64,000 bases of DNA, taken from Octopus vulgaris (taxonomy: Eukaryota). The DNA lies in contig OX597819.1 of the NCBI GenBank assembly GCA_951406725.2, forward strand, positions 75,640,001-75,704,000, in the 5' to 3' direction. Positions 3,291-63,505 of this stretch are shown one piece after another. Made by a program: the position numbers and the translations under genes. Below the pieces are notes generated by a model. It worked only from the letters and a program-made list of their open reading frames with translations, was not told the origin of the DNA and made no database searches. Positions within the stretch are counted from its first letter, which is position 1. Each line of letters opens with the position of its first letter.

Positions 3291-3384
3291 CCTTATACTT
3301 TTAAGTTTCGCTTTTACTGACCAAATATATCAACTAATAAAATAACTAATTGATTATTTAATCATCCGTAGCTCATCAGTGAGG
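3291..3384 (-). ncRNA. Type I hammerhead ribozyme motif, elongated stem II
   Basis: Minus strand: cctca-CTGATGA-gct[57 nt with hairpins]agc-GAAA-c-ttaaaa-g-TA-taagg; stem I pairs 4 of 5. Confidence 0.72.
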
Positions 3385-3514
3385 TCGCTGGTTAAATTCA
3401 TAAACATAAAACTGCATTACGTACCGAAAGCCAAAGTAAACACATACGCATTCAGTTCCGTGTTTTCATGGATTCACCTCAGAATGGCCTCAAAGCAACG
3501 TGCAACTCCAGCGA

Positions 3515-3629
3515 AGTATAGCAGTGAATAAATTCAAACTGATACACGTGGTTGAAGAATTTAAATATTTAGTAGTATAGCAGTGAATAAATTCAAACTT
3601 ATACACGTGGTAGAGGAATTTAAATGTTT
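3515..3629. repeat. ~60 bp tandem duplication
   Basis: agtatagcagtgaataaattcaaact(g/t)atacacgtggt..gaatttaaat occurs twice. Confidence 0.9.
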
Positions 3630-3865
3630 AACGTTATAAATATAAAGGTAAAATGATCAAACAATGGTGTTTTCCACTTCGTGTATGTTTCACATTCTAT
3701 TATATTTAAAAATATTTATGTCTTCTGACTTTTAGTACGCATGCTAGCCACTGGTAAATAATTATTTTATAATTTTTACCCTTATGCTTAATAAGTTGTG
3801 TGTATATATATATATATATATATATATATATATATATATATATATATATATATATATATATATAT

Positions 3866-4094
3866 GTTAGCCTTGGCTTCCTGCTGATGAGAGCTTCGCC
3901 AATCGTAAATAATTTTATTTACAAAAGATTGCTTGAAACCATGCATAGTCCAGGAAAAATAGGGTAAATATTTTTATTTTTCATTTCCTTTCAAAATTAC
4001 AACTATCAATGGTTTGCAGTTTAACTACTCTTTCTAGCGAGTCAGACGTCCTGTTATAACCATATCTTATGTGTTTAAATGTACACTGTATTTA
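3866..4094 (+). mobile_element. TA-flanked hammerhead-bearing short element (solo pLTR/retrozyme-like)
   Basis: Between two (TA)n arrays; begins with a hammerhead; 3' part tcttatgtgtttaaatgtacactgta recurs inverted near 16888-16915. Confidence 0.65.
3878..3956 (+). ncRNA. Type I hammerhead ribozyme motif, elongated stem II
   Basis: ttcctg-CTGATGA-gagc..aatc-gtaaata/tatttac-gatt-gctt-GAAA-c-catgcata-g-TC-caggaa; perfect 6-bp stem I, intact core, GUC site at 3948-3950. Confidence 0.85.
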
Positions 4095-4139
4095 TATATA
4101 TATATATATATATATATATATATATATATATATATATCA

Positions 4140-59246: not shown

Positions 59247-59304
59247 TTATAATAATAATAATAATAATAATAATAATAATAATAATAATAATAATAATAA
59301 TAAT

Positions 59305-62189
59305 AAAAAAACCCAAAAATTACTGAAAAAATACAATATGAAAACTATACTTGATATTGATGCCACCATAGAAACCATCAAACAAAAGGTATCTGCCAAA
59401 GCTGCCCGCATAGCGAGGTATGAAAAGCGTGTTAGATTTTTCAAGGACAACAACATGTTCAAAAATAACACCAAGAATTTTTACCGGAAGATAGGAAAAA
59501 CAGCGTTTACTGCAGGGTCTGTACCATCAAAAGAAGAAGTGCAGAGATTTTGGAATAAAATCTGGGCAGAAGAAAAAACACACAACGAAAAGGCCCCTGG
59601 ATTGACAGAATATCTACAGAACTGGACCCCTTAGAAGAGCAAAAGTGGGAGGGTGTCAAGGTAGAAGATATAAGATCTGCTCTCAGGAGGTCAAGCAAAT
59701 GGAAGTCTCCAGGAAAGGATAAAATTCCTAACTTCTGGCTGAATGCCTTCCCAGAGAGCCATGAACTGCTAACAGAACTGTACAATGATGTTTTGCAACA
59801 CCCTAGTAGGATGCCTCCTTGGCTAGTTAATGGGTTAACATTCCTGCTTCCAAAAAGTGAAGAAACAAATGAACCAAAAAACTATAGACCCATAACTTGC
59901 TTAACAACTATGTACAAAACACTAACATCTGTCCTGACGGAATATACCTATAGTTTTTTAACAGACAGCAGCATATTCCCTAATGAACAGAAAGGATGTA
60001 AACGTGGATCCTACGGCTGTAAAGACCAACTACTCATCAATAAGATGATCTTAGAAGATTGTCACAAACGACACAAAAACTTATCAATAGCCTGGATAGA
60101 CTATAAAAAGGCTTTTGATAGCCTACCACATAGCTGGATTAGAAAATGCCTTGAAATGTATAAGATAGCACCAACTCTGCGAAACTTCTTGACTGTAAGT
60201 ATGAGATCATGGAGAACCACACTAACTCTGAACAGTGACAGTGAATTCCTAAATGCTGGTGATGTAAAAATTTCGTGTGGCATTTTCCAGGGTGACTCAC
60301 TGTCACCACTCCTCTTTTGTTTATCCTTAATACCTCTCTCAAAGCTGCTCAATGACGCGCAGTACGGGTATAAAATGTTTGATAAAAATATAAATCATCT
60401 CGTTTACATGGATGATTTAAAGCTTTTTGCAAAAAATGATCAACAACTCAAGGGCTTACTAGCGATAGTCAAACAATTCAGTGACGACATCAGAATGCAA
60501 TTCGGCCTCGATAAATGTGCAAAGGCTACCTTTATCAAAGGAAAAATGACAGAAACATCTAACGTTAACCTTGACCAACAGAATGTCATAAAAGAACTAG
60601 ACCCAGCGGAGAGCTACAAGTACCTAGGGATAATTGAAGGGAACGGAATAAGGCATTCAGAGATGAAGGAAAGGATCAGGAGAGAATGCTATCGAAGAGT
60701 GAGAGCAATACTCAAGACAGAGCTGAATGCAAGAAACAGGATCGAAGCAATCAATGCATTAGCTATACCAGTCGTGACTTACAGTTTCAATATTGTTAAC
60801 TGGTCACAATTACTGAAATATGTCAGCTCGACAGAAAAATAAGGAAACTGTTGACAATGCATAGAATGCACCACCCTAAGGCAGATACAGAACGACTCTA
60901 TCTGCCAAGAAAAGAGGGAGGCCGTGGTCTTTTGCAACTGGCAATAACAATGAAGATTGCTACAATTGGCCTAGACACCTACCTGAAAAACTCTGAGGAC
61001 TGGATGCTAAAACTTGTCTCAAAACATGAAAACAAGAAAGCATCATACTCAGTCACAAAACAGGCAAAGGAATATCTAAGTGAATTCCGAATACAACCAA
61101 TTTCGGAGATAGATATACAAGAAACAAGCACAGAAAAAGCTAGGCGCATGAAAACCCGTGCCAAAACTGCGGCCTTAGATATTCTGAATAATAAATGGCA
61201 AGAAAAACCTCTCTATGGCAAATACCCAAAGAGAGCGAATAATGCAGATATCGACAAAGCCCTGACCCATCAATGGCTAATGGCCTCTGGCTTAAAATCT
61301 GAAACAGAGGGGTTTATCATAGCAGCTCAAGATCAATGCCTACCAACAAGAAACTACCAGGCCAACATATTAAAGATCAGAAGCAGTCCAACGTGTCGTG
61401 TATGCAAGCAACAAAATGAAACCATTGACCATGTGGTCTCCAAGTGCAGTCTTCTAGCGCCTACAGAGTATCTCAACAGGCACGATAGAGCTGCACAATA
61501 TATTCACTGGGTAATCTGTAAAAACCTGGATTTGCCCCATGAAAAAAACTGGTGGGAACACAAACCACCCCCAGTGCTTGAAAATGACCACATCTCACTC
61601 CTCTGGAACTTCACCATTCAAACTGACAGGAAGATAGATGCAAATAGGCCAGACATCATATTGAAAAACTTCAAACAAAGAACATGCCTCCTCATTGATA
61701 TGACTGTCCCAATCGATATAAACGTATCTGTCAAGACCTACCAAAAACTGAGCAAATATAAAGATCTTGAAATAGAAATCAGCAAAATGTGGAAGCTGAA
61801 GACTAAAACAATACCTGTTGTCATAGGTGCCCTGGGAATGATAGCAAAAGGGGCTGATAGCTACCTAACTCAGATACCAGGAAACCCAAAAATGGCAGAA
61901 GTTCAAAAGATAGTGCTCATGGGAACTGCTCATATCCTACGCAAAATACTCTCTATGTAATCTCAAGGTTTAAAACAAACATAATTTTCGGTTTAAAAAA
62001 AAAAAAAAAAAAAAAACCTTTTTTTATTTTTTATTTTTAGACATTCATTAGTACAACATCCCCACCCCCCAAATATATGGCACACTAGGCATAACAACAA
62101 CATGAACTTCCAACCCTGTTGTCTCTTGAGGTCTCTGGGTGAGACTTGGAGCCAACTTGTACAAATATAAAGCAAAAGTCAAACATAGA
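59305..62189 (+). mobile_element. R4/Dong LINE family A, 5'-truncated, young (RT, CCHC, RLE; two frameshifts)
   Basis: ORFs 59338-59634, 59793-60842, 60851-61960 with NYRPITCL, DYKKAFDS, QGDSLSP, YMDD, CRVC..HVVSKC..RHD, RPDII..QKLSKY; (TAA)n on both sides. Confidence 0.96.
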
Positions 62190-62569
62190 ATAATAATAAT
62201 AATAATAATAATAATAATAATGATATTAATAATAACAATAATAATTATTATTATTATCATTATTATGCTACTCGGTATTTGTGCTGAAACTAGTGTAATT
62301 ATTATTCCTATCGAATAATGAACAAGTGGTCTACAATAAAATCCTTTTGGTACCTCCTGTATAAAAGTTTTTTTCAGCTTCTCATATTTGCTTCTACTTT
62401 GTTTTGAGCACCTTCAAGATAATCCTGGCTGAACTTATGGGCGACAAATAACTACATATTTAGGACGTTGCTTACATTTAATATGCCTGCATGCATGTTC
62501 TTAGGTGGTTGCATACGTTTGTACTGGGCGGTTTATGTATTTCATTATTTTGTTAATGTTACCGTTCAT

Positions 62570-62615
62570 GGCTTGAATACATACAGGAACCTGGGTTCCT
62601 GTATGTATTCAAGCC
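62570..62615. repeat. Perfect 22-bp-arm hairpin
   Basis: ggcttgaatacatacaggaacc-tg-ggttcctgtatgtattcaagcc. Confidence 0.95.
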
Positions 62616-63194
62616 TTCCATAAATTATTAAGTGCTTTCTTTGAAAGGAATTCCCTAGCATTGTAGTTGGTTGATTTATGATTTCTTTACAAGTAACTTT
62701 AGCTTCTTTGAAAAAACACTTTATTTTTCACGCATTTATTACTATTCAAATACTTTTTAGACATTCTTGCATTCATTTCATTGATTACCTTCGTAAGAAA
62801 TGGCACCCATATACATATACATACATACATACATACATACATACATACATACATACATACATACATACATACATACATACATACATATATATATATATAT
62901 ATATATATATATATATATATATATATACGTGTATGTGTGTGTACGAATGTATGTGTGTGAATATATTAGGTCGTCAAGTATGAAATTTGTAGTAAGGTAT
63001 ATGGTAAACTGGTGCTCCAAATCAGACATGCAATCTATGTGGGTGTCTTTTCAGAACATTGGTTTAAAAAGCCACAAAAGACGCTATGATGGTGCTAAGG
63101 TGTAGGTACAGGAGGTGGTCAACCCGTGTATAAGGAGTAGACAACCACCATATATATATATATATATATATATATATATATATATATATATATA

Positions 63195-63505
63195 GTAATA
63201 CTAAGCAATTAAGGGTTTAGCAACGAATTGCCTCACCAACACACCGAATTTAGAAATAGCAGTCAAAGAGATATAGCTATTCCTTCTACTAAAAGGGAGA
63301 TCTCAGTAAAAACACAGCACTTGAAAGGCAAACACAGACAGGTAAGAAAGAATGAAATGACGGCAATCTATCATACAATTTTAAGTTACCTACGGACGTA
63401 CGTTTCTAAATCAAGTTTTAGGAAAGCATAAGAATTAGAAAATTCTACCTTACCCAAACTTCTTTTCTCATCGGCGTAGGATACTACAATTATGAATAAT
63501 TATAA
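63195..63505 (-). mobile_element. TA-flanked hammerhead-bearing short element
   Basis: ~310 bp between two long (TA)n arrays; hammerhead near the 5' end; 3' motifs tttgactgctatttcta and accctta shared with 3120-3800. Confidence 0.7.
63389..63480 (-). ncRNA. Type I hammerhead ribozyme motif, elongated stem II, CCGAUGA core variant
   Basis: cctacg-CCGATGA-[61 nt: aagttt/aaactt, aaggta/tgcttt, gaatt/aattc]-GAAA-c-gtac-g-TC-cgtagg; perfect 6-bp stem I; the closing G-C of stem II is G-A. Confidence 0.75.

Follow-up and report, generated by a model that had tools for sequence, protein, structure and literature searches.

Hammerhead ribozymes with palindromic helix III have already been published for Penelope-like elements (PLEs), where they act as dimers (PMC4209133), and their role in these elements is described as unclear (PMC8557442). 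The Hydra clade of PLEs, its targeting of (TA)n and a Hydra family of Octopus bimaculoides were also described previously (Craig et al. 2021, PMC8557442). Metazoan retrozymes of about 170-400 nucleotides (nt) cleave, form dimers and are circular (PMC7229834), and retrozymes have been presented as PLE derivatives (bioRxiv 10.64898/2026.07.22.740005). Here we describe a 64,000-nt stretch of the Octopus vulgaris genome (the window; assembly GCA_951406725.2, contig OX597819.1, positions 75,640,001 to 75,704,000) that carries type I hammerhead motifs with a long stem II. With a probability of roughly 0.78, these are hammerhead folds in PLE terminal repeats, two of them in truncated ends of an autonomous Hydra-type element and the rest in likely retrozymes of 481-583 nt that have no open reading frame (ORF), with predicted self-cleavage mainly as dimers. 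The motifs are real, were correctly recognised as hammerheads and belong to a known system; they define no new catalytic class and no new kind of mobile element. Three features are new: a long stem II that covaries and whose length, between 16 and 100 nt, is characteristic of the lineage; a Hydra-type lineage that lacks the linker motif; and retrozyme-like units that are young and exceed the reported ones in size.

An earlier, sequence-only reading of the window had announced five such motifs. All five lie where it placed them and have the architecture it described; a sixth, which it had overlooked, was found by a wider scan. All are repeats dispersed in the genome. They are listed here by family:

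3290..3385, minus strand: type I hammerhead, family F1 (the 3291 motif), with core 3379-3373 and a stem II region of 63 nt; cleavage is predicted after GUA, between 3296 and 3295.
3878..3956, plus strand: type I hammerhead of family F2, with core 3884-3890 and a stem II region of 44 nt; cleavage is predicted after GUC at 3950.
8452..8537, minus strand: type I hammerhead of family F3 (an autonomous Hydra-type PLE), with core 8531-8525 and a stem II region of 55 nt; cleavage is predicted between 8458 and 8457.
10885..10970, minus strand: type I hammerhead, family F3, 55-nt stem II region whose base is broken by private changes.
46996..47071, plus strand: sixth long-stem-II type I hammerhead, family F6, core 47002-47008, 45-nt stem II region; predicted cut after GUA at 47065.
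63389..63480, minus strand: type I hammerhead, family F5, CCGAUGA core 63474-63468, 61-nt stem II region; predicted cut between 63395 and 63394.

The core CUGANGA, GAAA and NUH stand in type I order in 12/12 families (one per lineage). Residues C3, G5, A6, G8 and A9, the GAAA and the UH cut site are kept in all of them and the stems share little sequence. Across the same families 67 of 72 stem I positions pair, against 34.4 for permuted strands (0/20,000). Stem II was followed in an alignment, A1, of 21 motifs (16 of 19 fetched autonomous copies of the F3 lineage, 4 other loci and the 8452 copy), from which the near-duplicates L117 and L134 and an arm deletion, L124, were omitted. Under a structure named after viewing the alignment, 89.9% of its 542 cells pair and 12 of 26 pairs change on both sides, 8 of these 12 in stem II, measures which sequence relatedness inflates; partners slid by 1-3 columns pair at 37-50%. 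RNAalifold, supplied with no structure, returned 10 stem II pairs, 6 with double changes, and did not recover stems I and III. The covariation proposed by the sequence-only reading is thus borne out by the alignment, by RNAalifold and by the stem I comparison, and the fold, as judged from these comparisons, is under selection. In the window families the arm holds about 13-24 pairs with internal loops. No conserved contact between loop I and loop II was seen by eye in A1. A candidate pairing of the stem II internal loop with a conserved downstream motif fits some subfamilies; it was dropped as a pseudoknot because F3 does not fit. The non-circular permutation of PMC10085705 was unneeded, since the ordinary type I order pairs and covaries.

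The palindromes reported in helix III are present and of the dimer type. However, those of the families are longer than first quoted and span the entire helix: ACTTATAAGT, ACTATGCATAGT, ACATGTGT (a wobble form of ACATATGT) and ACGTACGT. Helix III is fully self-complementary in 10/12 families. Its two central bases, which cannot pair in any monomer, are UA in 11 sequences, UG in 6 and CG in 3, with no mismatch among the 20. In 6/6 motifs the dimer in its active fold exceeds the co-fold minimum by 0-3.2 kcal/mol and is 10-17 kcal/mol lower than two active monomers. These results agree with the dimer model in print (PMC4209133, PMC6765202). The minimal PLE hammerheads of PMC4209133 share the short palindromic helix III, the dimer model and the family-to-family covariation. 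However, their helix II is of 7-8 bp, as against the 13-24 pairs of the window arms, and the helix III palindromes here reach 12 nt.

Family F3 belongs to an autonomous element. All five motifs had been assigned to non-autonomous elements; this does not hold for 8452 and 10885, which are 5'-truncated ends of an autonomous PLE. The check proposed at the time, whether full-length PLE ORFs adjoin these repeats elsewhere, was positive for F3, with a frame encoding reverse transcriptase (RT) and GIY-YIG endonuclease upstream. A long stem II also characterises autonomous PLE lineages and does not mark a separate system. At 3/20 F3 loci homology extends through the entire 1.5-kb upstream flank, and the fetched stretches show RT and GIY-YIG frames; F3 runs upstream into an open frame of 778 amino acids (aa; 775 from the first Met). 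A protein search, in which 141 of 8,361 candidates were scored, gave frames of 778 and about 900 codons. Of 20 fetched copies of the lineage, 58-99% identical in protein to the F3 frame, 19 carry a long-stem-II hammerhead located 190-820 nt behind the stop codon, and the remaining one is ended by a (TA)n tract ahead of the hammerhead position. The stem II region is 47-57 nt long in this lineage, 47-56 nt in these 19 copies, and shows compensatory changes. The unit from one hammerhead to the next is 2,863 nt with the whole ORF inside, and spacings of 2,842-2,866 nt were found in 8 listings (about 6 distinct places). First-look F3 candidates, which do not represent a copy number, amount to 1,679 in the genome, of which the best 40 were scored.

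In the 778-aa protein, YRDD and, at the C-terminus, a YQC..YIG motif are recognisable, both from the motifs themselves and from visual comparison with the alignment of PMC8557442. It has one Cys in the GIY-YIG core and a terminal CxH, and no CCHH. In the lineage, DKT and a CxxC before the E are present in 7/7 proteins and the RWL variant of the RWK motif was matched in 4/7. Pfam gave no useful match for Hydra-type proteins (sets of 4 and 3 proteins). The assignment to the Hydra type follows the section 11 criteria of PMC8557442, and the tree comprises the lineages of this genome and database homologues, without reference clades. The CxCX5C linker is absent from 7/7 F3-lineage proteins but present in three other lineages of this genome and in 8/8 database homologues; F3 is therefore filed as a Hydra-type derived sub-lineage and not as a textbook member. 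This linker is associated with (TA)n targeting (PMC8557442), and the F3-lineage copies (L116-L135) still end in (TA)n though they lack it. A Naiad origin was rejected for F3 because the endonuclease is C-terminal. F3 resembles the Hydra-clade PLEs by its type I fold behind an RT and C-terminal GIY-YIG frame, by DKT and the lack of CCHH, by (TA)n targets, by the short palindromic helix III and by tandem and inverted insertions. It differs by the missing linker (0/7 proteins), and the stem II region, at most about 26 nt in the published motifs, is 44-67 nt in the families described here and 85-100 nt in another lineage. One protein of this genome resembles Hydra-1_Obim by eye, and among 45 database matches the single homologue that bears an organism name is from Argonauta. 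Two other autonomous families are apparently active: one with 899-aa frames in a 3.62-kb tandem trimer (L132), the other of 717 aa (L204), for which 150/150 scored matches are identical to the 69-aa query.

Families F1, F2, F5 and F6 have another organization. For the 3291, 3878 and 63389 motifs, three of the five, the non-autonomous nature first proposed is supported, as opposed to the two F3 motifs. The units are arranged head-to-tail with one type I hammerhead per unit and measure 536 nt (F1), 481 nt (F2), 583 nt (F5) and 547 nt (F6); their longest Met frames are 43, 33, 64 and 64 codons, respectively. A colinear match of at least one unit occurs at 6/20 F1, 3/20 F2, 8/20 F5 and 4/12 F6 loci, which after merging of overlapping loci correspond to about 4, 3, 5 and 3 distinct places (reference included), so that each family shows the same period at three or more separate loci. 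Beyond the insertion end, the sequence returns to the next hammerhead with a fixed period, where in F3 it enters the ORF. Only one RT-like frame was observed in the 72 loci, on the opposite strand and of another lineage. Copies of F5 and F6 are 98-100% identical across chromosomes and have hence spread recently, and genomic copies of F2 and F1 are about 90% and about 80% identical. First-look candidates (F1 286, F2 1,416, F5 2,243, F6 1,403) are not copy numbers; the best 40 per family were scored and 12-20 loci examined. Diverged relatives of F2 possess arms of 65-67 nt; their stems I differ yet still pair, and their 12-nt palindromes differ as well. Among these relatives, L070 shows the same ORF-less layout with a 477-nt period. 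Other families (L059:800 +, L048:656 -, L063:580 -, L142:6801 +) have 59-65-nt arms and perfect palindromes, and their (TA)n end lies just 40-60 nt after the cut site.

These ORF-less units are likely retrozymes, and these small repeats likely borrow PLE enzymes; with the sampled autonomous PLEs they share insertion style only. Like the metazoan non-LTR retrozymes (PMC7229834), they are ORF-less head-to-tail repeats of low GC with one type I hammerhead per unit and co-occur with PLEs. The circular fold is well paired in F5 and F2 (z against 25 shuffles of -6.4 and -4.0, respectively) and weak in F1 (-1.8). However, units are 481-583 nt as compared to about 170-400 nt, stem II is long, and most insertions here are dispersed sub-unit fragments at (TA)n with PLE-type inversions. 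In addition, RNA was shown in the published cases. Contigs of three sequencing runs, presumed to be RNA, and of one unlabelled run cover most of the F5 dimer; ends, strand and circles are not resolvable in them and they are not used as evidence. The main text of PMC7229834 contains neither 'octopus' nor 'cephalopod'. In the literature searched, whose coverage is partial and does not establish absence from print, no description of octopus retrozymes or of 44-100-nt arms was found.

Insertion into (TA)n, another proposal of the sequence-only reading, is supported: counted downstream from the predicted cut site, insertion ends reach (TA)n after 50-300 nt. Each family shows two preferred distances, about 50 and 205 nt for F3, 140-157 and 245 for F2, 190-200 and 295-300 nt for F5 and 170 and 260-285 for F6, the nearer class being favoured by the queries used. 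F3 shows tandem and inverted repeats in addition to (TA)n insertion. Integrated copies are continuous across the cut site, which suggests that the template would be an uncut or re-ligated RNA. The ORF starts about 210-260 nt after the predicted new 5' end.

The length of stem II varies widely between lineages. Two more protein searches and 26 fetched stretches provided three more Hydra-type lineages, so that the stem II regions of four such lineages of this genome measure 16, 31, 47-57 and 85-100 nt. The motif was found in 3/4 intact copies of the 16-nt lineage, 2/2 of the 31-nt and 5/6 of the 85- or 100-nt lineage; degraded copies among the fetched stretches mostly lack it. In a small tree the 16-nt, 47-57-nt and 85-100-nt lineages group together, the branch uniting the first and the last being weak (0.58), and the 31-nt lineage is located elsewhere. 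The lineage with the longest regions of this analysis (85 and 100 nt; L208:5513 + and L211:5067 +, also L209, L212 and L213) has 955-960-aa frames and a 2-kb 3' untranslated region. As for the published motifs, none of the 26 Hydra entries in File S2 of PMC8557442 has a stem II region longer than about 26 nt (counted by eye), and two spike-moss PLE-X1 motifs of that file, marked as deviating, are near 50 nt; the methods of the paper list eight Naiads ('HHR_half_core') with core halves 35-50 nt apart, two of them from cephalopods. The spike-moss motifs thus approach the arms described here by their stem II region of about 50 nt, and the Naiad half-cores by their spacing. However, both belong to other PLE clades and are single families without covariation analysis, and the octopus Naiad end of the same supplement (by eye) is without this type I order. 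The 'long helix II' of PMC13725137 is 6 bp. In the record preceding Naiad_Hpol (same supplement, by eye), CUGAUGA, a 5-bp stem and a GAAA 46 nt apart can be recognised, with the stem I and III strands inside the loop; this Naiad end is possibly a non-circularly permuted hammerhead, which could explain some half-core cases.

Several observations weigh against the reading preferred here. In nearest-neighbour folding the minimum lies 1.3-3.9 kcal/mol below the active monomer. The U4C variant, reported to lower activity in vitro (PMC3088659), occurs in F5, in the intact F3 copies and in two other lineages. The stem II hairpins of F2 and F6 are weakly better than shuffles (z about -1.8 to -2.1), and in A1 further pair types are not above shuffles (271/500), although these counts are not probabilities because the structure was named after inspecting the alignment and the sequences are related. 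F1, F2, F5 and F6 exhibit no homology to the sampled autonomous terminal repeats (0/36 pairs above z 3), and 40 autonomous loci searched for a partner of the ORF-less units gave only short or unrelated matches. Finally, the steps at the RNA level (cleavage, circles and transcript ends) are deduced from the DNA.

The folds might be real and selected and the long arms nevertheless cleave little or never, the motifs serving as structural or protein-binding signals at the element end. This would agree with the low in vitro activity of the minimal PLE hammerheads (PMC4209133), also a point against our reading, with the U4C cores and with the lack of a recognisable contact between loops I and II, and uncut RNA explains the continuity of integrated copies across the cut site as well as circles do. 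However, the catalytic residues and the cut site are invariant in the 12 families, and a mussel retrozyme hammerhead without most of the tertiary-contact nucleotides still cleaved (PMC7229834), so that we regard this explanation as unlikely. Slightly less probable again is that F1, F2, F5 and F6 are ends of unsampled autonomous PLEs that sometimes land head to tail and not independent retrozymes. This is true of F3, and the best 40 candidates scored and the 12-20 loci seen per family represent a small part of 286-2,243 first-look candidates. Against it stand the fixed-period return to the next hammerhead at separate loci of each of the four families, the single RT-like frame in 72 loci, and the F2 relatives that have diverged while keeping the ORF-less layout.

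With a strict descriptor (stem I with at least 5/6 pairs, stem II base with at least 3 pairs, 30-90 nt) the window yields 2 long-stem-II cores, where 60 block-wise local dinucleotide shuffles give a mean of 0.017; a looser descriptor yields 4, the shuffles 0.083. Short cores and AT-rich hairpins are common and Rfam reports no hammerhead, but chance matches in AT-rich, repeat-rich DNA can be set aside with near certainty given these 2-4 cores, the conserved position behind the ORF in 19/20 copies and the covariation in A1 and across families. The expectation that standard models miss these motifs is correct: Rfam gave 0 gathering-level matches in the window, 9 matches at E <=10 in 3250-3990, none of a hammerhead family, and, at E <=5, 305 matches of which the first 150 are microsatellite look-alikes. 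This failure presumably results from a model-length limit. In 40 evenly chosen 10-kb stretches of the genome (400 kb) 2 intact long-stem-II motifs were found, both accepted on homology. Extrapolated to the 2.8-Gb assembly (227 contigs), this corresponds to roughly 14,000 motifs (Poisson range about 1,700-50,000), a density to which the window is superior. Among 62 pattern matches in metagenome contigs there was no relative. Ordinary short-arm minimal hammerheads from other PLE families occur in the window at 47378 (plus) and 38751 (minus), and 36781 (minus) is a weaker candidate of this type. A further hammerhead-like candidate, at 38520-38576 (plus), is weak: its stem II region measures 26 nt, its helix III is unusual, and it may have arisen by chance.

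If the motifs cleave mainly as dimers, as we favour, a read-through transcript of a tandem copy would pair its two palindromic helices III. The paired RNA would cut after GUC/GUA and free one unit, of 2.9 kb with the whole ORF or of about 0.5 kb without it. The released RNA would then carry the long stem II at its extreme 3' end or, if ligated, within the circle. (TA)n would be nicked by a PLE RT/GIY-YIG protein, which would begin to copy uncut or circularised RNA downstream of the cut site and run back through the ribozyme; such copying would account for the short fragments, the tandem copies and the inversions. The long stem II itself is best viewed as an extension that lies outside the catalytic core, is tolerated and selectively paired, and most likely serves to protect or present the 3' end. 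A more speculative proposal, which we hold only tentatively, is that PLE hammerheads possess in their stem II an expandable domain, spanning 16 to 100 nt within one genome and turned into a functional 3'-end module of the released RNA (for end protection, RT loading or export), and that length-limited searches have missed a large class of active hammerheads and 0.5-kb circular retrozymes, with intact motifs here on the order of ten thousand. Similar long arms may, if so, explain some PLEs now reported without hammerhead. Standard models under-count these ribozymes. The octopus genome offers a natural series in which stem II regions of 16, 31, 45-67 and 85-100 nt accompany one catalytic core; the families, autonomous as well as non-autonomous, are young and their copies nearly identical. 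This series allows testing of stem II function, of the need for dimers in cleavage and of the start of copying on circles.

The insertions that host the motifs in the window are the following:

3136..3797, minus strand: F1 insertion flanked by (TA)n tracts, holding the greater part of a 536-nt ORF-less unit.
3664-3797, plus strand: inverted F1 fragment within the F1 insertion.
3866..4090, plus strand: F2 insertion flanked by (TA)n tracts, representing part of a 481-nt ORF-less unit.
8374..8545, minus strand: F3 terminal-repeat fragment, 5'-truncated, not bounded by (TA)n.
10837..11281, both strands: inverted F3 insertion between (TA)n tracts, composed of a minus copy (10837-10978) and a plus copy (10991-11281).
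46858..47242, plus strand: F6 insertion flanked by (TA)n tracts, representing part of a 547-nt ORF-less unit; identity to the best copies in the genome is 99-100%.
63194..63503, minus strand: F5 insertion flanked by (TA)n tracts, representing part of a 583-nt ORF-less unit; identity to copies in the genome is 98-99%.

As announced for the first five motifs, four of the five hosts adjoin (TA)n and the 8452 host does not. The plus copy 10991-11281 is without the 5' half of its hammerhead, through an internal deletion. Comparison with the 20 best genomic copies per family shows private lesions in most window copies. The pairing and covariation of the four stems I first quoted are upheld, except that cctca/taagg (3291) contains a C-A mismatch. 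This mismatch is private, a different base being found there in the other 19/20 loci, and the 3291 copy, whose palindrome is also broken, is decayed. The palindrome of the 3878 copy is broken by one private change. The 10885 hammerhead, with its broken stem II base, is likely inactive. The 63389 copy lost the G10.1-C11.1 pair, the C of which is retained in 19/19 other loci. Core and closing pairs are intact in the 8452 and 46996 copies. Most window copies are decayed passengers.

Other fragments of mobile elements are scattered in the window. An older F2-family fragment (79% identity) lies at 16777-16950 on the minus strand and is without a hammerhead core. At 41647-43030 (minus) another PLE has left a fragment that includes RT and GIY-YIG frames (Pfam GIY-YIG E 0.006) and a cysteine linker and precedes a long CA-rich tract; we take it to be Neptune-like from its motifs. 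Frames with RT and C-terminal restriction-like endonuclease motifs occur at 59559-61960 (plus), 18502-20059 (plus) and 53019-55052 (minus) and presumably belong to the non-LTR retrotransposon class.

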